This document shows, in pieces, positions 1-32,453 of a stretch of 42,000 bases of DNA. Both the position numbers and the translations under genes were made by a program. Numbering within the stretch: position 1 is the stretch's first letter; each line of letters starts with the position of its first letter. Source of the DNA: a virus. Its lineage: Duplodnaviria > Caudoviricetes. Location: positions 1-42,000 of the IMG/VR virus record IMGVR_UViG_3300046786_000257. The stretch is one strand, 5' to 3'. A model generated the notes under the pieces. It was not told where the DNA came from and did no database searches. It saw only the letters and a program-made list of their open reading frames with translations.

Positions 1-511
1 AACCTCTGATATTAAATTAGAGGTAGACTCATTTGATCAAGAATGGTAACAGAACACATCAAGACAAGACAACAATATTGTCCATGTCAACACAAAAATG
101 TTTCAGATTAAATACTTTAGCTATGACTGGACTCGTGATCAAGATATACATATAGAAGAAAAAAATTCTTTTAAGACAGATGGCGCATCAAAGCAACTAC
201 AAGATATTTATAATAAAGTAGAGTCCTATTACTCTGGTAAGGTAGTAAGAGCTGAAGTAATTAAAATGATGCCAAATACCAAGATAATTAGACATGTCGA
301 TGGCGGAGAAATGCTTACATTAACAAGAAGATGTCACATACCAATAACTACTGCGGATGAAGTATACTTTGGAGTTTTTGGAAATACCATTAACATGAAG
401 GTGGGAACAATTTATGAGATCAATAACTTATTGCCACATGAAGTAGAAAATAATAGCAAAGTAGAAAGAGACCATTTAATACTAGACATACTCCCATTCG
501 AAGTGTTATAA
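1..511 (+). CDS. Aspartyl/asparaginyl beta-hydroxylase-like 2OG-Fe(II) oxygenase; 5' part interrupted by an in-frame TAA at 47-49 (open ORF 98-511)
   Basis: HVD (HxD), RCHIPI, distal His (LPHEVEN) and ERDHLILD motifs of the AspH-like cupin fold. The same frame reads as plausible protein from position 2 except for one TAA. Confidence 0.7.
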
Positions 512-512
512 T
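483..512 (+). promoter_or_regulatory. Sigma70/HrdB-type promoter: TAGACA-18-TATAAT with TG extension
   Basis: TAGACA 483-488; TGTTATAAT 504-512; ATG at 519 with no SD sequence. Confidence 0.6.
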
Positions 513-518
513 ATGATT

Positions 519-1208
519 ATGGACAATACAATTAATAGCATAGGTTTTACTTCTAAGCATGAGCTCTTTCCTGGAGTATGGGTTTATAAAAATGTAATTA
601 AGCCAGAACACAGATTTGTTGAGCGTGTAGATGAGATTATTCAGTCAAGCAACGGTAAGCATATTTGGCAAGAGGCCTTAGTTGGATATTCTGAAAAAAG
701 ACCAGAGTATAGAGATTGCCAGGACTTTAAGCTATCTAAGAACGAATATGCTTCTTCTTTAGATGATCTAGAGTTAAATACGATTTGGCAAGAAGCACAT
801 GACGCTCAAAATATTGCAGTTGAAGATTACTCAGCAATGTATAGTCTAAGACTTGAGTATTGGGAAGCAATGAATTTTATTCAGTATGGTCCAGGACAAC
901 ACTTTCAAGAGCATGCCGATCATGGATTTTCATATGTAGCCACAGTATCTCTTGTTGCATATCCAAATGATGGATATGAGGGAGGGGAGCTATATTTCCC
1001 TAAGCTTAACTTAAATATTAAGCCAGAAGCTGGAGACCTATACATATTCCCTTCAACTTATTTATTCTCACATGTTGCAAAACCAGTTACATCTGGAAGA
1101 AAGTTTTCTATTGTTACAATGCTTGACTATAATGATGAGTGTCATAATGAGGACTTTATGAGACTAAGAGGGCAAAGACTTCAACGTGCACGAAATAAAA
1201 GCCTATAG
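519..1208 (+). CDS. 2OG-Fe(II) oxygenase, prolyl-4-hydroxylase-like (start 513 or 519)
   Basis: HAD, YPNDGYEGGELYFP, HVAKPVTSGRK: HxD...H triad and basic 2OG-binding residue. Confidence 0.9.
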   Translation: MDNTINSIGFTSKHELFPGVWVYKNVIKPEHRFVERVDEIIQSSNGKHIWQEALVGYSEKRPEYRDCQDFKLSKNEYASSLDDLELNTIWQEAHDAQNIAVEDYSAMYSLRLEYWEAMNFIQYGPGQHFQEHADHGFSYVATVSLVAYPNDGYEGGELYFPKLNLNIKPEAGDLYIFPSTYLFSHVAKPVTSGRKFSIVTMLDYNDECHNEDFMRLRGQRLQRARNKSL

Positions 1209-1893
1209 GACCCAGCCAGGCCTGGCAGATATAGCCCCGCTTGGAATCAAAAGAGACTGGATGGATGAAACCTGGGAGGCTCACGCATACAAATGCTTTC
1301 CAGTAAGTCTAGCTAATGGCTTAGGCTGGTATCTTTCTTTTCCAGAAGATATTGTTTTTATTTGGGATGGAATTTCTGATTCAACTGCGGACCACGTTAA
1401 AGTTCTAAAGGGTGAAAAATATGCATATCCAGAAAGAGGAAATGCAACAATAAGCTTTAATACGGGAATCATGTTTAGATCAGATGAAAATATTAGTATG
1501 TTACATATGCCAGTTCCAAATTATTTAAGAGATGGTGTGCAGCCATTCTCTACATTAATTAGCACTTCATTTTTTAATGGAGACATCCCTTGTGCGTGGA
1601 GAATTACCCGCCCAAACGTAGAAATAACAATTAAAGCTGGAACACCAGTCATTGCTCTTGTGCCAATAAACTTAGAAGAAATTCAAAATTCATCTATTGT
1701 ATTTGAAGATATAAAGTCTTTTGATTCAAAGGGATTTGACTCAGACGGATATTCAAGAGCATTGGGTCGCTTAAATAAAGAAGCAAAGTGGTCTAATTTT
1801 TATAGGGATGCCGTAGATCATTTAGGCAGGAAAATAGGCAAGCATCAAGTTAAAGCAATAAGGCTTTCTGTGAAAGATACCCTAGATAACTAA
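1186..1893 (+). CDS. DUF6065-like conserved protein (commonly beside phage 2OG oxygenases)
   Basis: KRDWMD...HAYKCFPVSLANGLGW motif and C-terminal WSNFYRDAVD, recalled as DUF6065-like. Confidence 0.6.
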   Translation: MHEIKAYRTQPGLADIAPLGIKRDWMDETWEAHAYKCFPVSLANGLGWYLSFPEDIVFIWDGISDSTADHVKVLKGEKYAYPERGNATISFNTGIMFRSDENISMLHMPVPNYLRDGVQPFSTLISTSFFNGDIPCAWRITRPNVEITIKAGTPVIALVPINLEEIQNSSIVFEDIKSFDSKGFDSDGYSRALGRLNKEAKWSNFYRDAVDHLGRKIGKHQVKAIRLSVKDTLDN

Positions 1894-1911
1894 CTGCTTT
1901 TGTGGTAAAAT
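1883..1911 (+). promoter_or_regulatory. Promoter TAGATA-17-TAAAAT with TG extension
   Basis: TGGTAAAAT 1903-1911 in the intergenic gap; the same 9-mer recurs at 7837 and 28351. Confidence 0.55.
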
Positions 1912-1938
1912 AATAGTACTGAGCGAATTGAGGATTTC

Positions 1939-2616
1939 ATGGAAATATCAAATAAAGACATAAAGCATAGAGCACCTAAATCAATTACACCTTCTGGATT
2001 TTTTGGTGATTCAAGTAGCAATATTGTAGAGCTAGTAGACTTTTTAACAGAACAAGAACAAAAGCGCCTTATTGATTTTGCAATGAATAATAAAATTTGG
2101 GACCAGACAGAAACTCATGTTGATGAAGACGGCTTGGTTCTTTATGATGCTAACGTTTGGCAAGATCGAGTCTGCACATACAACTCCCTAATGAAATCAG
2201 ACCCAGAAATTTTAGAATTAATTAACTCCATGATTTATCGCTTAAAGCTAGAGGTAGACAAATTCTTTAACGTCGATGCTAAAGAAACTGGACCAGCAAT
2301 TGTTAGATGGCCTGTTGGAGCAAGACAAGAGCCACATGCAGATAAAGAATTTCACACTGGTATAGAGGCTGGCAGGCCAAATGATTTCCCATGGTATGAC
2401 CTAGCTGGACTATTTTATTTTAACGATGACTACGAAGGTGGCGAACTTTATTTTCCACAACATGGAATTGAGTTTAAGCCAAAAGCAAGGGCAGCATATT
2501 TTTTCCCAGGAGATAGATACTATACTCATGGGGTAAGACCAGTTAAGTCTGGCAATAGATTTACTTCACCGTTCTTTTGGACGATTATGAGACATACAGG
2601 AGAAAGACAGCCATGA
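1939..2616 (+). CDS. 2OG-Fe(II) oxygenase, P4H-like
   Basis: HAD, YFNDDYEGGELYFP, HGVRPVKSGNR; SD GAGG upstream. Confidence 0.9.
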   Translation: MEISNKDIKHRAPKSITPSGFFGDSSSNIVELVDFLTEQEQKRLIDFAMNNKIWDQTETHVDEDGLVLYDANVWQDRVCTYNSLMKSDPEILELINSMIYRLKLEVDKFFNVDAKETGPAIVRWPVGARQEPHADKEFHTGIEAGRPNDFPWYDLAGLFYFNDDYEGGELYFPQHGIEFKPKARAAYFFPGDRYYTHGVRPVKSGNRFTSPFFWTIMRHTGERQP

Positions 2617-3437
2617 GCAATTTAGAATATGTAGAGCTATACCCAAAAGTTGATGTATATAGAAATGTACTTAAAGATCCACAACAGCTTTATGATGTAA
2701 TGAAAGACTCTGAAAGAAATGCTAATGGAGAGTTCTATCTTAAGACCTGGGATCCGTGGGCACATTTTGGTACGTATACTCAGCATAAGGGGTCACACGA
2801 GATAACTCCTGAAATGGAACAGCTTGATAAGTTTAAAGCTGAGAAGGCATTTGTGGATGAGGTTGAAGCTGCATATGCGGCAGTTATAGCAGACTATGTT
2901 GAAAGACATAACGTTGAAATGCCAGAAGGCTGGAGATTTAGCGGATGCTCTTTTTCAAAGTATAATCCTCAAGTCGATGTTCTTAAAAACAAAATGACAA
3001 TGCAGTACCATACTGACTTTATTATTTCACAAAGAGACATGCCAGGAACAAAATTTTTCTTAACATGTACAATGTATATTAATGATGACTATGAAGGTGG
3101 AGACATCGAGTTTTATATTGATGGTGACGGAACTATTATTAACCATAAGCCTAAAGCTGGAGACATCCTTGTATTCCCATCAACAGATCCTTATTTCCAT
3201 GGCGTAAAGGTTATCAACGAAGCAGAGAAGTTTTTTGTTAGAAACTTTGTCGTCTATGACTACGATGGATCAGAAGAATGGCTCGCTAATCAAAAGAGAT
3301 TTGGTGCTTATGCATGGTCAAAGAAAGAGCTTGAAAGAATTGAAGAAGAAGATAAAAAGAATATGATCTACTTAAAAGATGGGGCTCGTGTAGAACACAA
3401 GGACGCATACGCTAATAGAGATCAGGGTGGGATGTAA
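2613..3437 (+). CDS. 2OG-Fe(II) oxygenase, P4H-like
   Basis: HTD, YINDDYEGGDIEF, HGVK; ATGA overlap with the upstream stop favours start 2613. Confidence 0.88.
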   Translation: MSNLEYVELYPKVDVYRNVLKDPQQLYDVMKDSERNANGEFYLKTWDPWAHFGTYTQHKGSHEITPEMEQLDKFKAEKAFVDEVEAAYAAVIADYVERHNVEMPEGWRFSGCSFSKYNPQVDVLKNKMTMQYHTDFIISQRDMPGTKFFLTCTMYINDDYEGGDIEFYIDGDGTIINHKPKAGDILVFPSTDPYFHGVKVINEAEKFFVRNFVVYDYDGSEEWLANQKRFGAYAWSKKELERIEEEDKKNMIYLKDGARVEHKDAYANRDQGGM

Positions 3438-4195
3438 TGGAGTTAATTAAGTTAACAGAAGACATTCACCTTTATAAAAACTTTATATCAAAAGAAGAAA
3501 GCGAAGCCGTAGTAGCCCTGCTAAATAAGATTGCAGAAACAGAAGAGGGTTACTGGAAAGGTATTTCTTTTTATGAGTCATACTCAGCACGTTACCCATT
3601 TGACGGAGAAGAAATTCTAAAAGAATACGGACTTAGCGATACATGGTTTTCTGATATTCAGCAAAGGTTTAAAGAGGCAGCAGCGGTAGTTGCTGGAAAG
3701 TCTGCAGACGAGATGTCTAAGATCAGCTTTCACGTTCAAAGATGGCTTCCAGGAGCATTTGCCCCAAAGCATTCAGACAACAGCAGCAATGAAGGTGTCC
3801 TAGGTGCATTTACAAGAAGCAGATATGCTGGATTTCTTTATTTGAACGATGACTTTGAAGGCGGAACATTAAAGTTTGACGCAGAGCATGGGAAGACACC
3901 GTTGGAGATAGTTCCAGAGACTGGATCATTTTTAGTATTTCATGGTGGTCATAAAAATATGCACGAAGTAACAGTTGTTAAGGGTAAGCCAAGATACACG
4001 CTAGGATCATTTTGGGATGATAGAGAAGAAGAAGATTATCCCAAAGAGCTTAGAGATGAATGGGCAGACGAACTTGCAGAGGTCAGAGCTTATCAAAAAG
4101 GTGAGCAGGAACAGTGGCAGGATATTCGTGAAAAAGGCTTAAGGCTCTCTCCGTATGGAAAGACTGTACCAGCTTCAGAAGTAGAGGAAATTTAA
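3437..4195 (+). CDS. 2OG-Fe(II) oxygenase, P4H-like
   Basis: HSD, YLNDDFEGGTL, HEVTVVKGKPRY; TAATG coupling. Confidence 0.9.
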   Translation: MELIKLTEDIHLYKNFISKEESEAVVALLNKIAETEEGYWKGISFYESYSARYPFDGEEILKEYGLSDTWFSDIQQRFKEAAAVVAGKSADEMSKISFHVQRWLPGAFAPKHSDNSSNEGVLGAFTRSRYAGFLYLNDDFEGGTLKFDAEHGKTPLEIVPETGSFLVFHGGHKNMHEVTVVKGKPRYTLGSFWDDREEEDYPKELRDEWADELAEVRAYQKGEQEQWQDIREKGLRLSPYGKTVPASEVEEI

Positions 4196-4845
4196 TGGAA
4201 ACTGATAAGCAATTTGATCAATATATAATGTTTGACCTGAAGGTCTTGCACCCAGACATTTGGTATTTTGAAAATGCTATTAGCTATTCAGAGCTTATCG
4301 CTGCTTTTGTCGAGGAGTTGGATAAAGATTTTAGATCTTACATGAGAATCCCAGGCTGGCAAAACTGGACTGCAAGTGATGACTCCTCTGTTGTTTATGG
4401 AGCTACAAAAACAATTAGGCCAGACTATCTTAGAGAATCAACTGGGGATGCAAGAATAGATCAAAAGACTTTGTATATTATAAACAGCCTTACAATGGCA
4501 GCAGAGATGTGCTCCGATAGATATCTTGATGGTCACGGGCTAGATAAGTCTAAGTACAACCTAGACTTAAGTTCAATTCAGTTTAAAAAATGGAATGCTG
4601 GACAGTCTATGGGACCGCATTTTGATGGTCAAGACGGGGACACCTCATTGGCATTCTCTATGGTTTCATATATCAATGATGATTATGAAGGCGGAGAAAT
4701 TAGTTTCCCAGATCATAATATAGCTATTAAGCCAAAGGCTGGTAGCTTGATTATGTTCCCATCTCAGCTTCCTTTTATGCATGAAGTAAAGCAAATTAAA
4801 TCTGGAACAAGATATATGGTTCCTTATTTAGTATATAATAAATAA
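4195..4845 (+). CDS. 2OG-Fe(II) oxygenase, P4H-like
   Basis: HFD, YINDDYEGGEISFP, HEVKQIKSGTRY; TAATG coupling. Confidence 0.9.
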   Translation: METDKQFDQYIMFDLKVLHPDIWYFENAISYSELIAAFVEELDKDFRSYMRIPGWQNWTASDDSSVVYGATKTIRPDYLRESTGDARIDQKTLYIINSLTMAAEMCSDRYLDGHGLDKSKYNLDLSSIQFKKWNAGQSMGPHFDGQDGDTSLAFSMVSYINDDYEGGEISFPDHNIAIKPKAGSLIMFPSQLPFMHEVKQIKSGTRYMVPYLVYNK

Positions 4846-4865: not shown

Positions 4866-5969
4866 ATGAGTATCGGAGTAAATGGCTGGAGATTTCCAGA
4901 CTATTCAGACACGCCAGACGTCCCTAGAGACCTTGGTAACCTTGGCGATGACATTGCGGCATTCATTGAGGCTCATCCAGGGCCACAGGGCGATCCAGGG
5001 CCTTCTAACACCCTTTCTATAGGAACTGTAACAACAGTTACATCTGAAACTGGAGCTTCAGCAACAATAACTGGAACTTCACCAACACAAACATTAAACC
5101 TTCAAATACCAAGAGGTATTGATGGAATTATTGGTGGTCCTGGCCCATCAAATGTTTTAACAGTTGGAACAGTTACAACAGGTGCTGCTGGCGTAGATGC
5201 AGAAGTTTCAATTACTGGAACATCTCCAGAGCAAGTTATTAATTTTGTCATACCAAGAGGCGCAACTGGACTAACTGGTGCACAGGGAGATAAAGGCGAT
5301 AAGGGTGATGCAGCAGCAACAATAACTGTAAACTCCACAACAACAGGCGCAGCTGGAACAAATGCATCGGTTACAAATACTGGAACTTCAAGTGATGTAA
5401 TTCTTAATTTTGTAATTCCAAGAGGAGCAGATGGCGCAACTGGCGCAACTGGCGCAACTGGAGCAGACGGAGCTCCAGGTGCAGATGGATTAAATGCAAA
5501 CTTAGAACCCATCGATAATAAAATTCAATTAAACCCTCCAACAGTAACAGGGTCATTTGGTGTTAATGGAAACTGGTATCCAGCATATAATAATTTAAAT
5601 TATTTAGGACAGTTAGCGGATTCTGGACAGATACCTGCATGGCAGGCGAGAGTTTGGAAGAGTGCATATTTGCAGATATCTCCAACAATTACTTCTGATA
5701 TTAGAGCAAAAGAAAATATATCTGACTCCACACTAGGATTAGATTTTATTAATGATCTTCGTCCAGTTAGATATCACTACGGATTAATTGCTCAAGAAGT
5801 AAAAGAAGCAATAGATGCTTCAGGAGTAGAAGACTTTGGAGGGTGGGTAAAAGAAGACCTAAATGATCCAGAATCATCTGAACATTTAAGATATGAAGAG
5901 CTAGTTGCTCCATTAATTAAAGCGGTACAAGAACTTACAGCTAGAATACAAGCACTAGAAGCGAAGTAA
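4866..5969 (+). CDS. Collagen-like fibre protein with C-terminal peptidase S74 intramolecular chaperone
   Basis: Gly-X-Y tracts; three ~40-aa repeats ending IPRG; SDIRAK...HYGLIAQEV...LIKAVQEL chaperone with terminal coiled coil. Confidence 0.85.
   Translation: MSIGVNGWRFPDYSDTPDVPRDLGNLGDDIAAFIEAHPGPQGDPGPSNTLSIGTVTTVTSETGASATITGTSPTQTLNLQIPRGIDGIIGGPGPSNVLTVGTVTTGAAGVDAEVSITGTSPEQVINFVIPRGATGLTGAQGDKGDKGDAAATITVNSTTTGAAGTNASVTNTGTSSDVILNFVIPRGADGATGATGATGADGAPGADGLNANLEPIDNKIQLNPPTVTGSFGVNGNWYPAYNNLNYLGQLADSGQIPAWQARVWKSAYLQISPTITSDIRAKENISDSTLGLDFINDLRPVRYHYGLIAQEVKEAIDASGVEDFGGWVKEDLNDPESSEHLRYEELVAPLIKAVQELTARIQALEAK
5433..5459 (+). repeat. Perfect 9-bp tandem repeat (GGCGCAACT)x3 encoding Gly-Ala-Thr collagen triplets
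   Basis: Seen directly. Confidence 0.9.
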
Positions 5970-16338: not shown

Positions 16339-16671
16339 ATGGCAAGTACAGTATATGATGTAGAAGAAATTCAATTACAAAATGGCAATGTCGTCAAACT
16401 AAAGCCTTTAACAATTAAAGAGCTTAGAAAGTTTATGGCAGCTATTTCAAAGACAGCGGACGCTACAACTGAAGATGAAACACTTACAATTTTAATTGAT
16501 GCATGTGCAGTAGCACTTGAAAAGCAACTACCAGATTTAGTTGCAGATCGTGACGCATTCGAAGATGTATTAGATGTTCCAACAATCAACCGTATCCTTG
16601 AGGTATGTGGTGGTATTAAGATGGATGATGCAAATTTGATAGCGGCAGCGGTTCTAGCTGGGGAGAACTAG
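16339..16671 (+). CDS. Tail assembly chaperone (gpG analogue)
   Basis: Between tail tube and TMP; VKLKPLTIKELRKF motif. Confidence 0.85.
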   Translation: MASTVYDVEEIQLQNGNVVKLKPLTIKELRKFMAAISKTADATTEDETLTILIDACAVALEKQLPDLVADRDAFEDVLDVPTINRILEVCGGIKMDDANLIAAAVLAGEN

Positions 16672-17000
16672 ATCTAGCTGCTTTAGAAGGAGAAGTTTTT
16701 CTCCTTGGTCATTGGAAGAGTTACGAAGAACTTGAAGACAATCTTTCAATGCCAGAACTGGTTCAAACTCTCAAAGCTATACAAAAGAAAGAATCAGAAA
16801 ATAGAAAGTTTCTAGCATCAATGCAAGGTGTTGATCTAGAAGAAGAAGTACAAGAAGAAAAAGGTTCTACCTTTGAAGATGTTCGAAGAAGAGCTCTTGG
16901 AATTGAAGCCACACAAGATGATGTTGTTTCACTACAAGGACAATTCGCAGCGGAAGCTGGATTCGGAATCAATGCAGGGTTAGGATACTCGAAGGAGTAA
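16629..17000 (+). CDS. Tail assembly chaperone frameshift extension (gpT analogue; fusion 16339-17000)
   Basis: -1 frame reads ...SWGELDLAALEGEVFLLGHWKSYEELEDNLSMPEL...; ATG 16749 lacks an SD. Confidence 0.8.
   Translation, partial: CKFDSGSGSSWGELDLAALEGEVFLLGHWKSYEELEDNLSMPELVQTLKAIQKKESENRKFLASMQGVDLEEEVQEEKGSTFEDVRRRALGIEATQDDVVSLQGQFAAEAGFGINAGLGYSKE
16632..16638 (+). other. Programmed -1 frameshift slippery site A AAT TTG
   Basis: XXXYYYZ heptamer in the correct phase; the -1 frame is open from 16629 to 17000. Confidence 0.65.
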
Positions 17001-17004
17001 ATGG

Positions 17005-20000
17005 TTGTCTGAGCAAAATATTAATACGAACATAACTGCTACGGCTAATTTTTCTGGCCTAACGTCGCAGTTGCAAGCGGTGACCGCTGAATTAATAAAG
17101 CTCCAAACAACAACCGTAGGACTCAATAAAAACTTACAAAACCAGATAGGCGTCATGAACCGTTCTTTTGCGGATTCAATGACGTCTACTGGCCAATTCT
17201 CAAAACACTTTGTTACGCTTACATCTGATGTTGAGAAGTTCGGCAAGAATCTTGATAGCGGTAGACTAAAGCTAAGCCAGTACTACAACACTTGGCAGGG
17301 TCACGTAAAGAACTCTAACACCCTTATTAAAGATCTAGCAAAGCAACAGGTGATGCTAGAGAATGCAATTATTCAGCCTTTAGGTAAAAATGCACAAGGC
17401 TTAATGCAGTATAACGTAATGGTTCAAAGAGGGCTAGACACTACAAAAGAAAAGATGTCCCTCTTAAGACAAGAGCAAGCTATTGTTAATAAGGTTATGC
17501 AAGATGGTGCAAACCAATTAATTAACTGGGGTAAAAATACCCAATGGGCTGGTCGTCAGTTAACAGTCGGACTCACAGTTCCAATTGCAGCCTTTGGCGT
17601 TGCTGCATCAAAAGCATTTAGAGAAGCTGATCAAGAACTTGTTAGACTAACTAAGGTTTATGGCGGATTAACAGCTGTATCTTCTGCTGAGTTAGCTAAA
17701 GTAAGAAAAGATATCTCTGAAACAGCAAAAGAATTAGCATCGTCTATGGGTGCATCTTATAAAGAAACAATTGGATTAGCAGCTGATATTGCCGCAACTG
17801 GTAAAGAGGGTGTAGACTTAATTGCTGCAACTAAAGAAACAACAAGACTAGCGGTACTTGGTGAGGTTGACAGACAAGAAGCAATGAAAGCCACGCTTGC
17901 AATTCAGTCAGCATTTAAGCAAAACACTGATGAGCTTACAAAATCAATTGACTTCCTCAACTCAGTTGAAAACCAGACTTCTACTAGCCTAGCAGATTTA
18001 GTTGAAGCAATTCCTAAAGCAGGTCCAGTAGTACAAGCAATGGGTGGAAGCATCAAGGATGTTGCGCTCTATTTAACAGCTATGCGTGAAGGCGGAATTA
18101 ATGCAAGCGAGGGTGCTAACGCACTCAAGTCTGCGTTAGCATCATTAGTAAACCCAACCAAGGTTGCTAAAGAAATGTTTAACGGCTTCGGTATTGATTT
18201 AAGCGGGATTGTAACAAAGAATGCTGGAAACTTAACAGAGACAATCCTGCAGCTACAATCTGCATTAGATACTCTTAACCCACTTCAAAAGCAACAAGCA
18301 ATCGAACAGCTATTTGGAAAGTTCCAGTTCTCTAGAATGAACGCATTGTTTGCTAACTTAGGAAAAGAAGGATCTCAAACCCTTAAGGTTTTAGATCTTA
18401 TGAAAGCAAGCTCCTCACAGCTTGCAGACATATCTGCTCGAGAATTAGCGCAGGTCACAGAGTCTGCATCTGGACGATATAAGAGAGCTCTTGAATCTGT
18501 TAAAGCAGATTTAGCAGGAGTTGGAGAATCCTTCCTTAAGATTAATACATATGTACTACAGGCAATTGATGGCATCGTTAAATTCGTTAATCATCTTCCT
18601 GGGCCAATCAAGAGCGTCCTGACATTTGTAGGCGGTCTAACAGCCCTTGCAGGCCCTCTGATCATGCTTACAGGTGTGCTTGGCAACTTCCTTGGATACG
18701 TAATTAAGGGAGTCTTTGCCCTTAAAAATATGGGCAAAGGTAAAGATGGATTTAAGCTATTAACACCAGAAATTATGGCGGCAGCAAAAGCTGGAAACCT
18801 TCTTCATGATTCATTTTATAGCGATGCAAAAGCTACAGAAACATTAAGAGATTCTGTATTTTCATTAGCTGAAGCATTTAATGCTGTTAAGGTGGCAGCT
18901 TTAGAAGCTGGGGTAGCAACAAATAAAGTTATATCTACAGCTCAAGGCAACGTAATAATTTCTCCATCTTCAAGAGCAATTAATGGTGAAAGAGTTGCAA
19001 ATAAAAACAGCCCATTTATTGGAGCTCCATATACAAGAGATATGGTTCACACAAATCCAACTGCAAGCAAGTCTGCAGAGGCAAGAGCAGCAGAAACAAT
19101 TTTCTCAACAGTTCCTGGGCCAAAGCCAGTAAATCAAAAGGTTTCAAATAACCCACAAATTTACATGAACAACGATCTTCCAAAAATTAATGGAATCACA
19201 TCTGTAAATGGAGTATCAACTGGAATAGTTGCTGCAGAGGCAGCAAAGTGGCATGCTATGACAGCGGCTATTGCTACACAATCAGAAGCAGAAATTGCTA
19301 AGCTAAAAACTGAAGTTGCTGCTACAGGAACTGTCACATCAGAATTAAGCGATGCATATCAACAAATGCTTCCAGCTATGTCAGAGCTCACAACACTTGC
19401 TGCTCAAGATGCAGAGATGATTGTCAAAGAACTTCAAGCTGGCACACTAACAGTTGAAGCTGCAAGAGCAAAAATATTCCAGTTAAATGCAACAGTGGAA
19501 GCTATGATGGCGGAAACAGCAACTCAGATTGCAACTGGCATGGGAAGAAATATAAACTTAACTACAGTACCGTTGACAAGCCAGCCAGTAGTATCAGCAG
19601 CTGGCAAATCAAATATGAAAGAGCTTTTTCACAAAACAGAAACATCGGCATTAGCAGATGCAATTGCAAGAAACTTAGGCGTTAGAACATCTGGCGGCGG
19701 ATATAGTATTGAGACTACTATACCTAAGAGACTTAATTCTGGTGGCAAGGTCGGCGGAGTATATAATCCTAATGTTCATGGGGCAGTTGTTCCTGGTGAC
19801 ACATCAATAAATTATGATAATACTCCAGCCAGAGTACCACTTGGTGGATTTGTATTAAATCAAGAAGCTTCAAGAAATAATCCAGAATTAGTAGAACGTG
19901 CTAAAAATGGATATAACGCTGGTGGACAAATTGATGCACTTCTTACTCCAGGAGAAACTGTTGTAGATCCAAGAACATATCAAGAAAATAGATCAGCTTA

Positions 20001-23000
20001 TGATATGGCTAATTCTTCAAGAAAAAGAATTTCATTTAGAAATGCAGGCGGTCTACTCGGTGGACAAGTCGTGCCAAGAAGACTAAATTATGGAGAAGTA
20101 AATAGCGATGCTCAATTAAAGTATTATACAGAGTTCCATACAAGTAAAGACTGGAACCCTTATGCAAGAGCGGGTGCAATTGCAAATGATGCTGAGGCTT
20201 TGGCTAGAAATGGCGTACCATACAAAGAGGCTGTAAGAGAAGCAACTAAATGGTTTGATGATAGATGGGCTAGAACACTTGCTGAAAATGGTGGAGAATT
20301 TAGTCAAGCTAAGTTTACTGAAATTACTCAGGGTAGCTATAAGAACTTTGAAAAAGAATTAAGAAAGAAATATACTCTCAAGAAATCTCTTTCTAAAGAC
20401 TGGAATAAGAGAACAGGTTCTGGCGCTGCCCCTACAAGAAAAGATTGGCAGTACACATCTGGCGGAATCGACATTAATTTAAGAAAAGATATTCTTACTG
20501 AAATGTTGGATGATAAGAACATTAGCTCAAGTGCTGTAAGCAGATTAATTAAGGAGTCTGGAGTTGCAACTTTGCATAGAGCTCATGCAGTCCCAGGTGT
20601 AGAAAACAAGCTTTCAGGATTCAACTACCTTGGCCAGGCAGTTTTGCAGCCAGGCGAAATAAATACATTGGCTAAAGATTTAAATCATTATGGTATTCAT
20701 CCAAACGCTTTCTCATTAGATGTTAATGAGAATAAAAAGTCAATGAATACAGTTGCCAAAAAGCTTGGCTATCTTGACCATGAAGATATGGTTAAGAGCT
20801 TATCTTCAAGACAGTCTGCTCAAGCTAGACCACCAAGAAGATGGGCAGTAAGAAATGGCATGACTGCCATTATGGAAAGATTAGTTAAATCAAGCCCAGC
20901 AGACTTTAGAGCATACATGGCCCGTCCAATGATTGCCAATAGATTGGCAATGAATTCTGGAGGAGAGATCGGTGGAGTTGTAACATCTGGTAAAAAGAAT
21001 TACGGAATCACTATTGGAGAAAGAGGCTTTCCACTATTTAAGGGAAGATACAAATCTCCATTAATGTTGCATCCTGAGCAAGTTAAGCTTCAGGAAAAAA
21101 GAACTGCAGAGCGTTTAGCTAAAGCTCCAAAAGACGCAGAAGGAAGAATTTGGCAGACTCCATTAGAGCTAGCCTATATTAGAGAAGGAAAGATGAGCAT
21201 GGGTAAAAACCCTATGCCAAAATCTTACTATCAAGATTTATCAAATGATGATCCAGCACATGGAGCATTACAGATTGGAAGATATAGACCTCCAATTCAT
21301 GTAAGAAATCAATATGTCGGAGAGCAGATTAGATACTCTTCCCCAACAAACTGGAGAGGGCGAGAGGGAATTTCCTCACCAGCATTTGAAGTTGGCACCC
21401 TTGAAACTAGAGCAAAGTCTGCGTTGTATAAATATATGCAGGGAGATTACTCTGCAATAGATGATCCAGCAGTTCAAAAATATTTATCTACACTAAGAAC
21501 TAAATTCACTGGCACCCTTCATAGAGGAGTTAGACACACATCTAGTCTGCCTCCAGTAATTAGAGATTTAATTCAGCAAGGCAAATGGGCAGAGCTAGTT
21601 GGCAAAGAGTTCATCATGCGTCGCTCATCATGGAGCACAAATAAAGATACGGCAGAAGGATTTGGTCAGCTTCAGCTTATTGCTAATGTGAAAAATAGAA
21701 ATGCGGTACCAGCATCTCAGATTTTCCCAGATTTGACTTTCCAGTCTGCTCAAGGGCCAGTCCCAGTAAATGAAAGCGAAGTTTACATGGGTGGAAAGTT
21801 TAGAGTTGTTGGTGCAGAAAAGAATAAACTTAGACTCCAAGCTATTTATGATGCAGCTCGTGAAAAGGGCGGTCCTGTTAATAAGAGTAGACCATACCTA
21901 GTTGGCGAAAAGGGCCCAGAGCTCTTTGTTCCAAATGCTAATGGAAAAATTGTTCCAGGCTACAACATGGGCGGAATTATTAAGCAACTATTAGTTATGG
22001 CTGGAGTTGGTCAAGCATCCTCTATGGTAGGACAAAAAGTTGGTGGAGTTGGCGGAGAAGCAATATCAACTATTGGTCAACTTTTACCATTCCTCATGAT
22101 GGGCAATGCGGGAATGGGGTCAGGAAGTAAACTAAGTTCTAAGTTGCCATCAAGCTGGAATCAGGCGGCATTTGTAGAATCAAAGGGAGGATCTAGTTTA
22201 GCATCCTCACTTGGTGGAAATACAAAGATGCTGTCTGCGTATGGCGCAAAAATGACACAGTTGGCAACAACAGGTGGAAAATTTGGATCTACAATTGGTA
22301 AGCTAGCCCTAGGCATGAGCAGATTTAATTTGGCTCTTGGTGTAGGAACAACAGCTGCTGTAGTGGCATGGAAGGCTTGGAAGAATCATAACGAACACTT
22401 AAGAGTTGGTGCTCTTCAATATGGCCTTACTGCAGAAGCTGCTAAAAAAGCAGGACTTAAATTTACTGATTACAATCAAAAAATGAAAGATGCAGTTTCA
22501 ACAATTAAAGACCTTAATGAAAAAAATCAATTGATTTATGAAAGCATGACTCAATCTGATACTCCTATTAACCTTACAATAAAACAGTATAAGGCATTGA
22601 AGAAAGAAGTTCAGTCAACTTATGCCGATCAAATTAAACTTATTAATCAGACAAAAGACTCTAAGTCTATAAATAAAGTAGCGCTTGATCTTAAAACTCA
22701 ATTAATTGCAGCAGGAATGTCAGCAGAAGAAGCGACTAAAAAAATCTATACAATGTTTAAACTTTCAAATAAAGCATCTAGTGCCGTTGCTGCAACGGTT
22801 GGCAATACAAGATTTAATCAAATCAGTGACCCTCAAACAGCAGCAGTTGCAGCTGTTGGAGGATATAAGTCTGCATCTAAAGAAGGCGGAGTAGAAGGTG
22901 CAAATGCTGTGAATACTGCATTAACTGCAATTGATACAGGAATTCAAGACAGTATTGAAAGAAGTAAAAAAGCTGCTATGGCTGATAAGACTGGAAACAC

Positions 23001-24669
23001 TAAAGTCCTTACGCAGTATGAAGCAGAATTAAAGATGATTAATAGAATTAATAATTCTAAAAAAGATGGAACCAAAATTACAAAAGACACTATTGATCAA
23101 TTAGCAAAAGAAAATCCTGCTATAAGAGAAATAGCTACCGAACAAGATACAGTAGTAAGCTTATGGCAAAAAATGGATCTAGCTACAAAAGGCTATTCTG
23201 GAAATCTTTCAGAACTTGGCTCAGAAGCTGTAGCTACTTTAAGTAAAATAGCACAGGCTATATCAAATGCAACCATTGCAGCTAATAAAGAAGGTCTTCT
23301 AAAAGATCAATATAACTTATTAGATAAGCTCACTGCACAAAGAGACAAATTACTTAAGGCTGCAAAAGGACAGAGTGTACAACAGCAGATAAATGATAGA
23401 GATGCCCTTGCTGCGCTAAATAAGCAAATTGATAAAAACAATAAGCTTGCTGATGCTAGAAAAAAGGCACTTGATGCTGCAAAACAAGATGCTGATTTAG
23501 CTAGAGCTATTGAAAAGAAAAAGCTTGAAATACAAAGCGCTATTGCTTCTGGAAATGATACACAAGCTCAACAGGCCCAACTGGACATGGAAGGCCTTTT
23601 AAAGCAACAGCAATATGAGTCACAAGTAAAAGCAATTGATAAATCTGTTGAAGATGCAAACGCACCACTTTTAAAACAAATTGAGGCTATACAGAATAAG
23701 CAGCAAAAATTAGCTGATGGCGCCGCTTTAGCTGGAGAAGGTTTATCTAAGCTAAATGACAAAATTGCTACACAGAAAGATAAAATTGATGCAGTAAATA
23801 CTGCTATGACATCATTTAGACTAAATGCAGCGGCTGCTGGAAAGTCTTTAGAGGAATGGGCAAAAGATCCAGATGGAATGAAGCAAGCAACTGCTATAAC
23901 TAATGCTGCAAAAAATGCTGGAGTTAAAACAACGGCAGGACAAAATAGCGTTACATATACTCCAGGAATAGGTCCAGTTGTAAATAAGGTAACAAATTCT
24001 CAAGCGGGACTTGATCTTTTAAAAACAACTCAAGCTGCAGTAGAAAAAGGATTATCTGCACAAAATATGGAAGTTCAAAACTCTGGTGATATATACATAA
24101 ATGGATCAAAACAAACTGTTCAAAAAAATGTTGATGCTGGAGGAAAAGCTTTAAAAACAATAACAGCAAAAATTGAAACAACTGGCTATAGCGCAAATAC
24201 AGTAGGCAAAGGGTCATTAATGGCTGCTGGTGTACCATTGATCAAAGGCGCAATGTTTTTAGACAGTGCTGGTAAGAAGTGGGTAGTAGGAGATCAAAGC
24301 GATAGAATGGGAATGAATTTCCATGTAACGCAAAAGGCTGGATATGGTCTTATGAATATTGATCCAAAGAAGCCTACAATTGTTGGTGACCGTGGACCAG
24401 AGATGATTTTTGGGAATATGGTTATTCCAAATATGGCAAAGGTTCCGTTTGCTGGACCAAGATATGATGTAGCAAAAGCATCTATGAAGATGAAGGATAT
24501 GGGCATGTCATCTTCAAATGGCACATATAACGTAACTCAAAATATTTACGCATCAGACGGAATGGATGTAGAAGCACTTGCAAATATGGTTGTTAAGCAA
24601 ACTAAGTTAGCAATTGGACAAGAAGCTAAGGTTAATGCTAAAATGGTTGGAGTAAAGAGGACAATCTAA
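17005..24669 (+). CDS. Tape measure protein (2554 aa) with internal enzyme-like cassettes
   Basis: TP901-type core (AFREADQELVRL...EGANALKS...IEQLFGK), hydrophobic segments, coiled coils; follows the chaperone pair; TTG start behind AAGGAG. Confidence 0.95.
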   Translation: MSEQNINTNITATANFSGLTSQLQAVTAELIKLQTTTVGLNKNLQNQIGVMNRSFADSMTSTGQFSKHFVTLTSDVEKFGKNLDSGRLKLSQYYNTWQGHVKNSNTLIKDLAKQQVMLENAIIQPLGKNAQGLMQYNVMVQRGLDTTKEKMSLLRQEQAIVNKVMQDGANQLINWGKNTQWAGRQLTVGLTVPIAAFGVAASKAFREADQELVRLTKVYGGLTAVSSAELAKVRKDISETAKELASSMGASYKETIGLAADIAATGKEGVDLIAATKETTRLAVLGEVDRQEAMKATLAIQSAFKQNTDELTKSIDFLNSVENQTSTSLADLVEAIPKAGPVVQAMGGSIKDVALYLTAMREGGINASEGANALKSALASLVNPTKVAKEMFNGFGIDLSGIVTKNAGNLTETILQLQSALDTLNPLQKQQAIEQLFGKFQFSRMNALFANLGKEGSQTLKVLDLMKASSSQLADISARELAQVTESASGRYKRALESVKADLAGVGESFLKINTYVLQAIDGIVKFVNHLPGPIKSVLTFVGGLTALAGPLIMLTGVLGNFLGYVIKGVFALKNMGKGKDGFKLLTPEIMAAAKAGNLLHDSFYSDAKATETLRDSVFSLAEAFNAVKVAALEAGVATNKVISTAQGNVIISPSSRAINGERVANKNSPFIGAPYTRDMVHTNPTASKSAEARAAETIFSTVPGPKPVNQKVSNNPQIYMNNDLPKINGITSVNGVSTGIVAAEAAKWHAMTAAIATQSEAEIAKLKTEVAATGTVTSELSDAYQQMLPAMSELTTLAAQDAEMIVKELQAGTLTVEAARAKIFQLNATVEAMMAETATQIATGMGRNINLTTVPLTSQPVVSAAGKSNMKELFHKTETSALADAIARNLGVRTSGGGYSIETTIPKRLNSGGKVGGVYNPNVHGAVVPGDTSINYDNTPARVPLGGFVLNQEASRNNPELVERAKNGYNAGGQIDALLTPGETVVDPRTYQENRSAYDMANSSRKRISFRNAGGLLGGQVVPRRLNYGEVNSDAQLKYYTEFHTSKDWNPYARAGAIANDAEALARNGVPYKEAVREATKWFDDRWARTLAENGGEFSQAKFTEITQGSYKNFEKELRKKYTLKKSLSKDWNKRTGSGAAPTRKDWQYTSGGIDINLRKDILTEMLDDKNISSSAVSRLIKESGVATLHRAHAVPGVENKLSGFNYLGQAVLQPGEINTLAKDLNHYGIHPNAFSLDVNENKKSMNTVAKKLGYLDHEDMVKSLSSRQSAQARPPRRWAVRNGMTAIMERLVKSSPADFRAYMARPMIANRLAMNSGGEIGGVVTSGKKNYGITIGERGFPLFKGRYKSPLMLHPEQVKLQEKRTAERLAKAPKDAEGRIWQTPLELAYIREGKMSMGKNPMPKSYYQDLSNDDPAHGALQIGRYRPPIHVRNQYVGEQIRYSSPTNWRGREGISSPAFEVGTLETRAKSALYKYMQGDYSAIDDPAVQKYLSTLRTKFTGTLHRGVRHTSSLPPVIRDLIQQGKWAELVGKEFIMRRSSWSTNKDTAEGFGQLQLIANVKNRNAVPASQIFPDLTFQSAQGPVPVNESEVYMGGKFRVVGAEKNKLRLQAIYDAAREKGGPVNKSRPYLVGEKGPELFVPNANGKIVPGYNMGGIIKQLLVMAGVGQASSMVGQKVGGVGGEAISTIGQLLPFLMMGNAGMGSGSKLSSKLPSSWNQAAFVESKGGSSLASSLGGNTKMLSAYGAKMTQLATTGGKFGSTIGKLALGMSRFNLALGVGTTAAVVAWKAWKNHNEHLRVGALQYGLTAEAAKKAGLKFTDYNQKMKDAVSTIKDLNEKNQLIYESMTQSDTPINLTIKQYKALKKEVQSTYADQIKLINQTKDSKSINKVALDLKTQLIAAGMSAEEATKKIYTMFKLSNKASSAVAATVGNTRFNQISDPQTAAVAAVGGYKSASKEGGVEGANAVNTALTAIDTGIQDSIERSKKAAMADKTGNTKVLTQYEAELKMINRINNSKKDGTKITKDTIDQLAKENPAIREIATEQDTVVSLWQKMDLATKGYSGNLSELGSEAVATLSKIAQAISNATIAANKEGLLKDQYNLLDKLTAQRDKLLKAAKGQSVQQQINDRDALAALNKQIDKNNKLADARKKALDAAKQDADLARAIEKKKLEIQSAIASGNDTQAQQAQLDMEGLLKQQQYESQVKAIDKSVEDANAPLLKQIEAIQNKQQKLADGAALAGEGLSKLNDKIATQKDKIDAVNTAMTSFRLNAAAAGKSLEEWAKDPDGMKQATAITNAAKNAGVKTTAGQNSVTYTPGIGPVVNKVTNSQAGLDLLKTTQAAVEKGLSAQNMEVQNSGDIYINGSKQTVQKNVDAGGKALKTITAKIETTGYSANTVGKGSLMAAGVPLIKGAMFLDSAGKKWVVGDQSDRMGMNFHVTQKAGYGLMNIDPKKPTIVGDRGPEMIFGNMVIPNMAKVPFAGPRYDVAKASMKMKDMGMSSSNGTYNVTQNIYASDGMDVEALANMVVKQTKLAIGQEAKVNAKMVGVKRTI
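21400..21852 (+). other. ADP-ribosyltransferase (R-S-E clade) domain inside the TMP
   Basis: ALYKYMQGDY helix, LHRG (R1507), SSWST (S1542-x-S1544), NESEV (E1590-x-E1592), then GKFRVV. Confidence 0.8.
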
Positions 24670-29696: not shown

Positions 29697-32453
29697 ATGT
29701 TGCCACCAGATTCTTTAGACTACACAGACACAAACCTTGGACTTTCTGTTCCAGCTGATGTGCAGGCTGATCCTGCAAAAGCTGCAAGCCAAGTTTCTAA
29801 AGATTCATATGACATAGTTTTAGAGGGCATGCCAATAAGAGTTGGAAAAGAATTTGTTTTTTCATTTCAGTATGTATATCAAAACCCAACCACTGGAACT
29901 TTAATAAACGGTCCATCTTCTGCATTATTTAGAACTGGATTACAGATTGTAGATAGAACTGAGGCTGTGTCAAATCTATCAGTTAAAGCTGGGTATAAGA
30001 GCTATGAGCTAAAGTGGGACCCAGTTACATTTGAGGGATTTATCGACCTTCAGGTTTTTGAATCCTATACCAGCGATTTTGCAGTAGCAGAGCTTAAGTA
30101 TGTCGGTAAATCAAATCAGGTTAATATACTTACAGCAAATACAACTGCAAGATACGTCAAGGTCATCACAAGAGACAAATGGAATAACTCAAAGACATAT
30201 GTTCATCCTACTGCAATTATTCCATTAAATCCAGATCCTGATACATCAACGCCACCATCACCACCATCTGGAGCAGTAGCAACTGGATCAATAGATTCAA
30301 ATGACCTCAGTGGATTTGGCGGACAGATTATAGTATCTTGGACTGCAAATACAGATTCTAATACATCTGGATATATTATTAGATGGTCTACGGACAATCC
30401 GTCATCTGTAGCAACACCCAATTGGGAGTATGGTCAAGTAGAAGGAAAGACAGTAACATCATTTAAAGTTACAGGCCTTCTTCTAAACACAACATATTAT
30501 TATCAGGTTACAGCAAAAAGTCCGTACAATTCCTTATCTTGGACTGCATCACCTGTACAAACACTATCCCCAATAGTTGATTCTACAGCTGGCGGAGCTT
30601 GGTCAAGAATTAAATCATTTTTAACTATTGGCGGAGCTACTGGAGATCTGTTTAAATTTGGAACAGCTATCCCAGCATCATTAAACTTTAGTACAACTAC
30701 CACACCATCATTGACTTCTGGAACATATAATGGAACTATTTTAAATATATCAACAACAAATGTTGGCAACAACTACTGGCTAAACACTGGTAGATTTAGA
30801 GTAGGAAGTGCAACATCATTCCTTTATTGGGATGGCTTAGATATATATACTACTGGAAAGATTAATGCCACTGGTGGATCATTTACAGGAGATGTTCAAT
30901 TAAATGGCGGAAGCTTATATGCTGGATCTCTTCCTAATAGCGGACAAAGGGTTAGACTAAACTCATCTGGAATATTTGCATATAACTCTTCTGGGACCCA
31001 AACCTTCTCTCTAGATACTGCTGGATATATAAATGCAATATCTGGCTTAATAGGAGGTTGGACACTAGGATCAACTTCATTGTCTTCTAATGGTGTAACA
31101 ATAAGTAACACGGGACAGATATCCCTTGGTGATACTGCTACAAATAGCGTATACTTAAGCTCAGTAGATACTGGGTATAGATTATGGATTGGTTCAAATT
31201 CAGGATCCAATGCTCCATTCAGAGTAAGTAAAGCTGGAGTTTTATATGCAAGTGGTGCAACAATTGATGGCAATTCAAGCATATCTGGTACGGTAAGCAT
31301 TGGAGGGTCATCCGCTTCTACCGTTGTTTCAAACGCTAATGGTGCACTTCAGCCAGGCGGAACTTTGACTGGATCTGTTTCTGGTACTGCAACCATTAAT
31401 GGAACTACAGCTTCAACTGTTGTCAGCCGAGCAACTGGTGCAGTGCAACCAGGAAATGGAGTTGGAGTAAACGCCACTACAAGGACAATTGAAACTATTA
31501 CTGCTGGAACAACACTAACTTTAAAATCTGGTGGAGCAAAACCTGTTATTTTAGACAATACAGGTTTAAGAATGAATGATGGAACGCAGGATACTTTATT
31601 TTTAGATGCATCAACTGGATCTGCAGTATTCAGGGGAACTATCTATGCATCAGCAGGATCATTTGCAGGATCTTTATCTGCTGCAAGTGGTACATTTTCT
31701 GGAACCATAACATCTGGTAATGGAAGCTCCCTTGGAGACTGGAAGGTAGACTCAGAGGGCACTTTAGGGAGCGGTTTAGGTTTAGGAGGAACTTATCTTT
31801 ATGCTAATAGTGCTTCTGGTAGCGGAGTAACATTTTCTATATACACTGGCAAAATGATTTTTGCCGCTCAAGGATTTTCCTCTACAGCAGCTGCACCGAT
31901 AGTATTTGCAAATGCCTCTCCGCAAATATCTTCAGCTGGTGGAGTAAGAATAAATAATGCATTTGCTCCTTCTGCAGACGATAGTTTTTCATTAGGGTAC
32001 ACTACAGCAAGATGGCAAATTGTGCGATCTGCTGGAGGGGTATCAACAACATCTGACAGAAGAATTAAGACTAATATTGAAACATCAGATTTAGGATTAG
32101 ACTTTATTAAACTATTAAAGCCAGTTAAATATAAGTTTATTAGTGGAGGCAAGGTCCCAGCAAATGGGGTTGGCCCTATCATTGTAGATGATAAGGTAGT
32201 AGATACAGAGTATATAGATATACCTGGAGTGAGAGATCATTACGGATTTATTGCTCAAGATGTAAAAGAGGCCATCGATATATCTGGAGTTAATGATTTT
32301 GCAGGATGGCAGCTAGAAGATAAAGATGATCCAGATTCTCAACAAGCTCTAGTGCATCACCATTTTATTGCTCCTCTTACAAAGGCTGTACAAGAATTGT
32401 CTAATATGGTAGAATCATTACAACAAGAAGTAAATACTCTGAAAGGTATATAA
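29697..32453 (+). CDS. Tail spike/fibre with FN3 domains, Gly/Ser-rich beta repeats and a C-terminal S74 chaperone
   Basis: VSWTAN...GYIIRW...VTGLLLNTTYYYQVTA (FN3); SDRRIK...HYGFIAQDV. Confidence 0.85.
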   Translation: MLPPDSLDYTDTNLGLSVPADVQADPAKAASQVSKDSYDIVLEGMPIRVGKEFVFSFQYVYQNPTTGTLINGPSSALFRTGLQIVDRTEAVSNLSVKAGYKSYELKWDPVTFEGFIDLQVFESYTSDFAVAELKYVGKSNQVNILTANTTARYVKVITRDKWNNSKTYVHPTAIIPLNPDPDTSTPPSPPSGAVATGSIDSNDLSGFGGQIIVSWTANTDSNTSGYIIRWSTDNPSSVATPNWEYGQVEGKTVTSFKVTGLLLNTTYYYQVTAKSPYNSLSWTASPVQTLSPIVDSTAGGAWSRIKSFLTIGGATGDLFKFGTAIPASLNFSTTTTPSLTSGTYNGTILNISTTNVGNNYWLNTGRFRVGSATSFLYWDGLDIYTTGKINATGGSFTGDVQLNGGSLYAGSLPNSGQRVRLNSSGIFAYNSSGTQTFSLDTAGYINAISGLIGGWTLGSTSLSSNGVTISNTGQISLGDTATNSVYLSSVDTGYRLWIGSNSGSNAPFRVSKAGVLYASGATIDGNSSISGTVSIGGSSASTVVSNANGALQPGGTLTGSVSGTATINGTTASTVVSRATGAVQPGNGVGVNATTRTIETITAGTTLTLKSGGAKPVILDNTGLRMNDGTQDTLFLDASTGSAVFRGTIYASAGSFAGSLSAASGTFSGTITSGNGSSLGDWKVDSEGTLGSGLGLGGTYLYANSASGSGVTFSIYTGKMIFAAQGFSSTAAAPIVFANASPQISSAGGVRINNAFAPSADDSFSLGYTTARWQIVRSAGGVSTTSDRRIKTNIETSDLGLDFIKLLKPVKYKFISGGKVPANGVGPIIVDDKVVDTEYIDIPGVRDHYGFIAQDVKEAIDISGVNDFAGWQLEDKDDPDSQQALVHHHFIAPLTKAVQELSNMVESLQQEVNTLKGI
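31287..31454 (+). repeat. Internal duplication with a 32-aa period in the tail spike
   Basis: GTVSIGGSSASTVVSNANGALQPG versus GTATINGTTASTVVSRATGAVQPG. Confidence 0.75.

Follow-up and report, generated by a model that had tools for sequence, protein, structure and literature searches.

A Gly-Gly joint resembling the T5 pb2 cleavage site recurs between exchangeable cassettes of a phage tape measure protein

The tape measure protein (TMP) whose gene lies in the window, i.e. in the whole 42,000-nucleotide stretch analysed here, contains a short Gly-Gly motif that recurs at the borders of two internal cassettes, and since a related copy of it lines up with the mapped cut in pb2 of phage T5, these joints are likely cutting sites. 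With a probability of roughly 60% we assume that a TMP maturation site has been repeated in this protein, which would make it a polyprotein cut into injected effectors, with the joints doubling as points of recombination.

The 42-kb fragment carries genes for the portal, prohead protease, capsid and tail, as well as for DnaB, primase and DnaE. Since the best matches of the capsid belong to Streptomyces phages (58–59% identity) and whiB, an actinobacterial marker, is present in four of five related records, the host is probably an actinobacterium and the virus a probable actinobacterial siphophage. The TMP matched PF10145 (E 3.7e-30, above the cut-off) and the TMP families of PHROGs (best phrog_10030, E 4e-127), and its gene order corresponds to that of Streptomyces phage tail operons: the longest tail gene, preceded by genes for the tube and chaperones and followed by those for distal and minor tail proteins. 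Pfam found PhageMin_Tail alone in this protein. Elsewhere in the window six consecutive genes of 2OG-Fe(II)-type oxygenases (five 2OG-FeII_Oxy_3 and one Asp/Asn hydroxylase) together with DUF6065 lie directly upstream of the structural genes (98–4845), and fibre-like proteins at 4866–5969 and 29697–32453 both end in Peptidase_S74 intramolecular chaperone domains. Features of the TMP locus, by their positions in the window, are:

16339-17000, tail assembly chaperones
17005..24669, + strand, TMP, 2,554 aa (PF10145, PHROG TMP families, gene order)
17719..18318, + strand, PhageMin_Tail scaffold domain, aa 239-438 (Pfam)
18613..18723, + strand, hydrophobic segment upstream of the array, probably membrane-spanning, aa 537-573 (hydropathy scan)
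19732..19911, + strand, type I GG module a, L-NSGG...D..PA...GGFV...N..L, aa 910-969, containing the partial copy of the leader (37 bits, module profile)
19912..20037, + strand, type I GG module b, Y-NAGG...LTPGE.V...AN, aa 970-1011 (28.7 bits)
20038..20094, + strand, leader 1, R-NAGG...NYG, aa 1012-1030, closing type I module b; predicted cut after R1012 (from the T5 register)
20095..20949, + strand, cassette 1, basic, mostly helical, nuclease-like but unassigned, its strand-strand-helix unit bearing the invariant residues H1194 and N1220
20950..21006, + strand, leader 2, M-NSGG...NYG, aa 1316-1334; predicted cut after M1316
21007..21858, + strand, cassette 2, its C-terminal part (21394-21858) modelled as an R-S-E ADP-ribosyltransferase (ART) fold (structure model, conserved residues)
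21859..21960, + strand, type II GG module, R-EKGG.V.....YLVGEKGPE..P, aa 1619-1652 (its alignment with T5 pb2 begins at the mapped cut)
21961..21981, + strand, closing joint Y-NMGG, aa 1653, after which the Gly-rich scaffold resumes (motif match)
24328..24459, + strand, degenerate type II module about 100 aa before the C terminus, corresponding in place to the cut in T5 (43 bits)

The initial annotation reported a duplicated 18-residue leader in this protein, and both copies were found in frame in the ORF 17005-24669: leader 1, NAGGLLGGQVVPRRLNYG (20041-20094, aa 1013-1030), and leader 2, NSGGEIGGVVTSGKKNYG (20953-21006, aa 1317-1334), with nine of 18 residues in common. Their likeness is indeed maintained at the protein level, as had been proposed, for the DNA is identical at 30 of 54 positions and four of the nine shared residues use different codons. 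The full leader pattern never occurred in 20,000 shuffles of the TMP and its part N.GG..GG.V averaged 0.0005 per shuffle, both patterns being post hoc, i.e. taken from the copies themselves. Regions behind the leaders proved unrelated, as claimed, since the profile-profile alignment of the two cassette families (hhalign) covered only the first 21, leader-derived, columns (probability 91.7). The partial copy reported at 19735 is present, but its V lies one residue earlier and the second GG is found in only two of 26 aligned relatives.

As a conserved unit the 18-mer did not survive comparison with relatives: the first NxGG is absent in 25 of 54 distinct leader instances, and the unit of conservation is therefore not the 18-mer. 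It is a shorter core, bulky/Arg-[NAE]-x-Gly-Gly-x-[VI], in which the residue preceding N (R, M, L, Y or F) is part of the motif, and the doubling of GG and the NYG tail are elaborations specific to the clade. GG, V/I and YG occur in all 54 distinct NYG-ending instances, but these residues were part of the search pattern; conservation is loose at the P1 position (R, Y, F, L, K, M), and synonymous codons differ at G, V and Y across 70 leader instances. Six core copies were registered in aa 910-1659 (at aa 910, 970, 1012, 1316, 1619 and 1653), with a degenerate one near aa 2442-2485, and outside the TMP the core occurs once in 10,817 aa (34 other ORFs tested). An FSIGG match in the prohead protease was set aside, as we take it to be, probably, the catalytic-serine motif of that enzyme.

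The motif opens and closes two small modules that are common among TMPs. Type I, with the consensus xxGG...D..PA.L..GE.V...N..xxGG, occupies aa 910-1016, and type II, R.xGG.V.....Y.VGE.GPE..P, occupies aa 1619-1652; by eye, GG.V..GK..YG, the latter half of the leader, looks like the first half of type II with one residue more. It is known since the 1970s that TMPs are cleaved. The type II module matches 226 phage records (E<=1), and among the 30 matches listed TMP annotation prevails. Its alignment with T5 pb2 (residues 1125-1162) scored 7.9 bits compared with 3.9 for the best of 1,000 shuffles, a modest match, and the cut-site sequence of pb2, R|AEGG, coincides with the module start, so that T5 R1127|AEGG falls in register with the window's R1619|EKGG as well as with its R|NAGG and M|NSGG. 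Cleavage of pb2 after R1127 is reported (PMC10038345), as are intact masses of the pieces, 121,683 and 9,702 Da (PMC11937500); the masses for this cut recomputed from the sequence record were 121.68 and 9.70 kDa. An older study, as cited in a reply paper (PMC11937520), placed the cut at V1148, which also falls within the type II module.

The cleavage-signal reading has indirect support from the sibling module at aa 1619 that aligns with the T5 cut site, and the two leaders themselves may be linked to the T5 and lambda sites through the five-residue pattern, by which alone both match the T5 cut site, and through adjacency to the modules; the leaders as such do not score against T5 or lambda, leader 2 reaching -3.1 bits with the type I profile. 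In both proteins R-[AE]-x-GG opens a GG..Y..GE.G.E..P module of a siphophage TMP, but T5 has one site, 92 aa from its C terminus, whereas six copies fence internal cassettes in the window. The GEHGTE sequence of T5 (pb2 aa 1142-1148), which we take to be the metallopeptidase motif of the T5 paper, corresponds to GE-x-GPE of the module (window 21904-21921). Because its His is replaced by K, R or N in the window clade, the HxxE metallopeptidase reading may be T5-specific or coincidental.

For lambda gpH the module in question is type I. The first profile, built from 14 sequences, did not separate gpH from shuffles (6.3 vs 6.4 bits), but the iterated one gave 25.0 bits for gpH 728-798 with 5.1 for the best of 500 shuffles. 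The lambda module, F733-ATGG...GEF...Y778-ATGG, is homologous to window aa 910-1016, leader 1 occupying the place of Y778-ATGG, and by these profile comparisons the flanking modules of the window are homologous to T5 pb2 and lambda gpH. Lambda differs in having a single module and no cargo enzymes; its module lies inside the span of TIGR01541 (tape_meas_lam_C), whereas the window modules have no match to this family. Maturation removes a piece of about 14 kDa from gpH near this module, and a paper of 2025 gives both the site and the catalyst as unknown and lets gpHC start tentatively near residue 690 (PMC12617516). Cutting where the module begins would release about 12.8 kDa, an imperfect fit to the quoted value of about 14 kDa. 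The type I profile found no match in T5 pb2, nor did the type II profile in gpH; type I has no family in Pfam, PHROGs or NCBIfam, and searches of PDB sequences with the module profiles were empty or weak, one TMP chain matching the type II module with E 0.016.

Among 1.84 billion proteins the module-region profile matched 974 at E<=0.001, and the best 150 of these reach 7,872 aa and up to 11 module copies. Of 12 matches scanned for domains ten contained PhageMin_Tail, one had no hit and one was a DUF5801 repeat protein. In two longer relatives the C-terminal half of the TMP additionally contains CHAP and LysM domains (P0008, aa 2674-2869; P0032, aa 2493-2687). Module copy number rises with protein length (rho 0.81, 149 database proteins), and such scaling, with one motif copy per folded domain, would also be expected if the motif were a tag for binding or threading, recognized by chaperones, partner TMP chains or an unfolding step, that keeps cassettes loadable into the tube, with the terminal copy alone being cut. 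Conservation of the NYG tail and basic residues beyond the cut-like core, and the degenerate C-terminal module, which like the T5 site lies some 100 aa short of the end, fit this idea too. We consider it improbable: the C-terminal copy lacks GG and is less similar to the T5 site than the internal ones, and our analyses point to no binding partner.

Under the preferred reading, a repeated maturation site, the TMP would be made whole, serve as a ruler and be cut after tail assembly before each [NAE]-x-GG, that is after R1012, M1316, R1619 and at the other copies, yielding cassette pieces of 34.0 and 33.9 kDa. These would be stored unfolded in the tail tube and ejected into the host ahead of DNA; pb2C of T5 and gpHC of lambda are both described as staying in the tube (PMC10038345 and PMC12617516, respectively). 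The ART-fold cassette and the possibly nucleolytic one would then refold and act on proteins of the host as T4 Alt does. As a guess, the Glu that is conserved in the adjoining module (GE/GPE) may take part in recognition or self-cutting. Since the signal has to stand at both ends of every cassette, these short repeats would supply homology for crossovers, and so for gain, loss and exchange of cassettes. A more specific version, in which a maturation site became a portable tag for cutting, the tail tube holds a polyprotein magazine of host-takeover or anti-defence enzymes, the GE/GPE module is a processing device, possibly a self-cutting one, and lambda gpH is cut after F733 or Y778, is offered as a tentative proposal with the odds somewhat against it.

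Cassette exchange was studied in relatives. Scanning viral contigs yielded 76 loci, which together with the window comprised 58 distinct variable regions (one locus having no anchor), 46 of them with both anchors and 33 non-redundant; in the latter the variable region spans 449-1,289 aa. The core motif occurs 194 times in their 29,838 aa (mean 9.5, maximum 19 in 200 shuffles) and 23 times in 27,100 aa of the N-terminal scaffold parts. Cutting the variable regions at the motif gave cassette families, of which ART was found in 15 of the 33 proteins, C1 and C2 in 14 each, C4 in 12, the kinase-like family in nine, C8 in six, C7 in four and C6 in three. Internal protein alignments start within -10 to +25 aa of a motif in 63% of 184 cases and end there in 53% of 216 (null 19%, maximum 24%), and 53% of 64 DNA alignment ends lie near a motif (null 17%, maximum 34%), all these tests being partly circular because shared motifs attract alignment ends.

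Individual pairs are clear. L028 and L032 are 95.6% identical up to NYG, exactly where their DNA identity is lost, then their first cassettes are only 25% alike, and the sequences rejoin at the next leader. Between L035 and L047 one whole kinase-like cassette is missing in the latter, leader to leader, with flanks 88% and 83% identical. All four combinations of the first cassette (C1 or C6) with the second one (ART or kinase-like) occur, the kinase-like cassette replacing cassette 2 in some relatives, and the profile alignment of ART and kinase-like cassettes is limited to 27 leader columns. On a quick scaffold tree of 25 rows, from which four N-terminally incomplete rows and the cassette-less or divergent L065, L071, L072 and L073 were left out, cassette types are scattered, with C8 and ART in separate clades. 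The leader as a boundary marker and recombination joint, the other suggestion of the initial annotation, is supported by such exact exchange and loss, and within the clade the motif does mark domain boundaries in other TMPs.

The same exactness is what one would expect from a flexible joint that is never cut and is a scar of recombination, the enzymes working while tethered to the membrane-inserted TMP. The leader is of low confidence and unstructured in both cassette models (pLDDT 31-35), and gp96 of Thermus phage P23-45, likewise a giant TMP, carries an enzyme, the virion RNA polymerase, into the host, where it is proposed to act at the pore (PMC10770324). This polymerase is an N-terminal fusion which the source, as far as available, describes without a cut, and therefore TMP cargo need not be released. 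Against such a joint stand conservation of the protein sequence with varied codons and the spacing bulky-[NAE]-x-GG-x-[VI], which is tighter than a linker would require and is seen again at the T5 cut, so that we find this explanation rather doubtful.

As to the cargo, neither cassette has a family in Pfam, PHROGs or NCBIfam, and searches of PDB sequences with the cassette profiles were empty or weak. In His-Me finger (beta-beta-alpha) nucleases the signature His stands at the end of strand 1 and an Asn in the helix. Both residues of this signature are present in cassette 1, where they are invariant in 29 of 29 homologues and the model places strands at 179-183 and 201-205 and a helix at 206-217. 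Fold and profile comparison with known nucleases found nothing at E<=0.001, the best Z being 4.3 and an HNH endonuclease appearing with E 0.48 only; there was no significant Foldseek or VIA match, and the best Atlas score, 0.87, was to no family. A limited search found no homologues of 147-576 aa and two longer ones. Judging by these residues and the predicted unit, cassette 1 recalls His-Me finger nucleases, which no search confirmed, and is possibly nucleolytic.

The last 155 residues of cassette 2, in the predicted model, fold like ADP-ribosyltransferases of C3/VIP2/Tre1 type (Foldseek E about 1e-5, 87 PDB matches at E<=0.001; VIA Z 10.7, rmsd 3.0, 134 residues aligned); the mean pLDDT of the cassette is 61.7 and is higher in the ART domain. 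Enzymes of the R-S-E class are marked by Arg, an STS-like motif and ExE. Their counterparts here are R1507, S1542-W-S1544 and E1590-x-E1592, of which R1507 and S1542 are kept in 15 of 15 ART cassettes, and E1590 and E1592 in 14 of 15. The exception, L032, has no C-terminal end in its ART cassette, and its aligned Glu come from the next module. At L032:9119-9268 the cassette, devoid of C-terminal strands, runs directly into the type II module, and the close relative L028 has these strands. For the ART fold Pfam gave no more than E 0.073, in one relative. Thus, by model and residues, the C-terminal part of cassette 2 is an R-S-E ADP-ribosyltransferase fold (C2/C3/VIP2/Alt-like).

Since its fold neighbours include VIP2, C2 and C3, one may ask if this ART cassette serves as an anti-predator toxin ("Trojan horse") directed at protist actin instead of the bacterial host, whatever the joints do, and this idea has been published for ARTs of freshwater phages (PMC6802176). 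It appears very improbable here: the top VIA matches, tied within 1 Z unit, include antibacterial effector-immunity pairs, the slot is exchanged with a kinase-like cassette, and few TMP copies are present per virion and go into the bacterium, as is established for T5 and lambda (PMC10038345, PMC12617516). The kinase-like cassette (L002:2401-3453 and relatives; nine of 33 non-redundant relatives) has no Pfam match, its nearest named Atlas clusters being PI3/PI4 kinase, LepB_N and HipA_2 with scores of 0.90-0.91, and kinase identity is a lead only.

Maturation of TMPs is already known, as are TMPs bearing enzymes and polyvalent proteins that are injected. In MuF-type polymorphic toxins the toxin is C-terminal and an immunity gene comes next; this type does not fit, the cassettes being internal and the next gene a conserved tail-operon gene. 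Polyvalent proteins are large late-gene products mixing ART, kinase and nuclease-type domains with mosaic turnover, for which, as for T4 Alt, injection with DNA has been proposed (PMC5512222). The window clade likewise has several effector-type domains in one late-gene protein, but the ARTs of polyvalent proteins are of the H-Y-D type whereas that of the window is R-S-E, and the description available for them has no repeated joint (PMC5512222). The main text of that paper (Iyer et al. 2017) has 0 occurrences of "tape measure", and the typical polyvalent domains (MPTase, ArdC-N, LPDs and H-Y-D ART) are absent from the window TMP according to Pfam and ART residues. Streptomyces phages of BE/BK type (Stanwilliamsviridae) and Rhodococcus phage Trina share the tail gene order, and the N-terminal part of their TMPs is 33-42% identical, but none of the six TMPs of these cultured relatives examined (2,088-2,380 aa) has the internal cassette array or internal leaders, only weak C-terminal modules.

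A literature search, with subscription papers mostly outside its coverage, found no paper on a repeated maturation-type GG joint fencing TMP cassettes. The shared motif gives residue-level predictions for T5 and lambda. Should cutting occur at the internal copies, the tail tube would be a general route delivering several enzymes before DNA, and the cassettes missed by Pfam would then represent a reservoir of host-takeover or anti-defence factors that lack annotation.

Among the relatives one conserved cassette of 150-157 aa, C2 (L002:3454-3924 and relatives), is present in 14 of 33 and belongs to no known family. Relative to other TMPs, the longest open frame of L033, L067 and L070 has a late start or an early end, and split genes, frameshifts or assembly errors are possible. 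At L062:7313-9253 many short NxGG units follow in tandem, 9-20 aa apart, which suggests that the joint itself expands by slippage.
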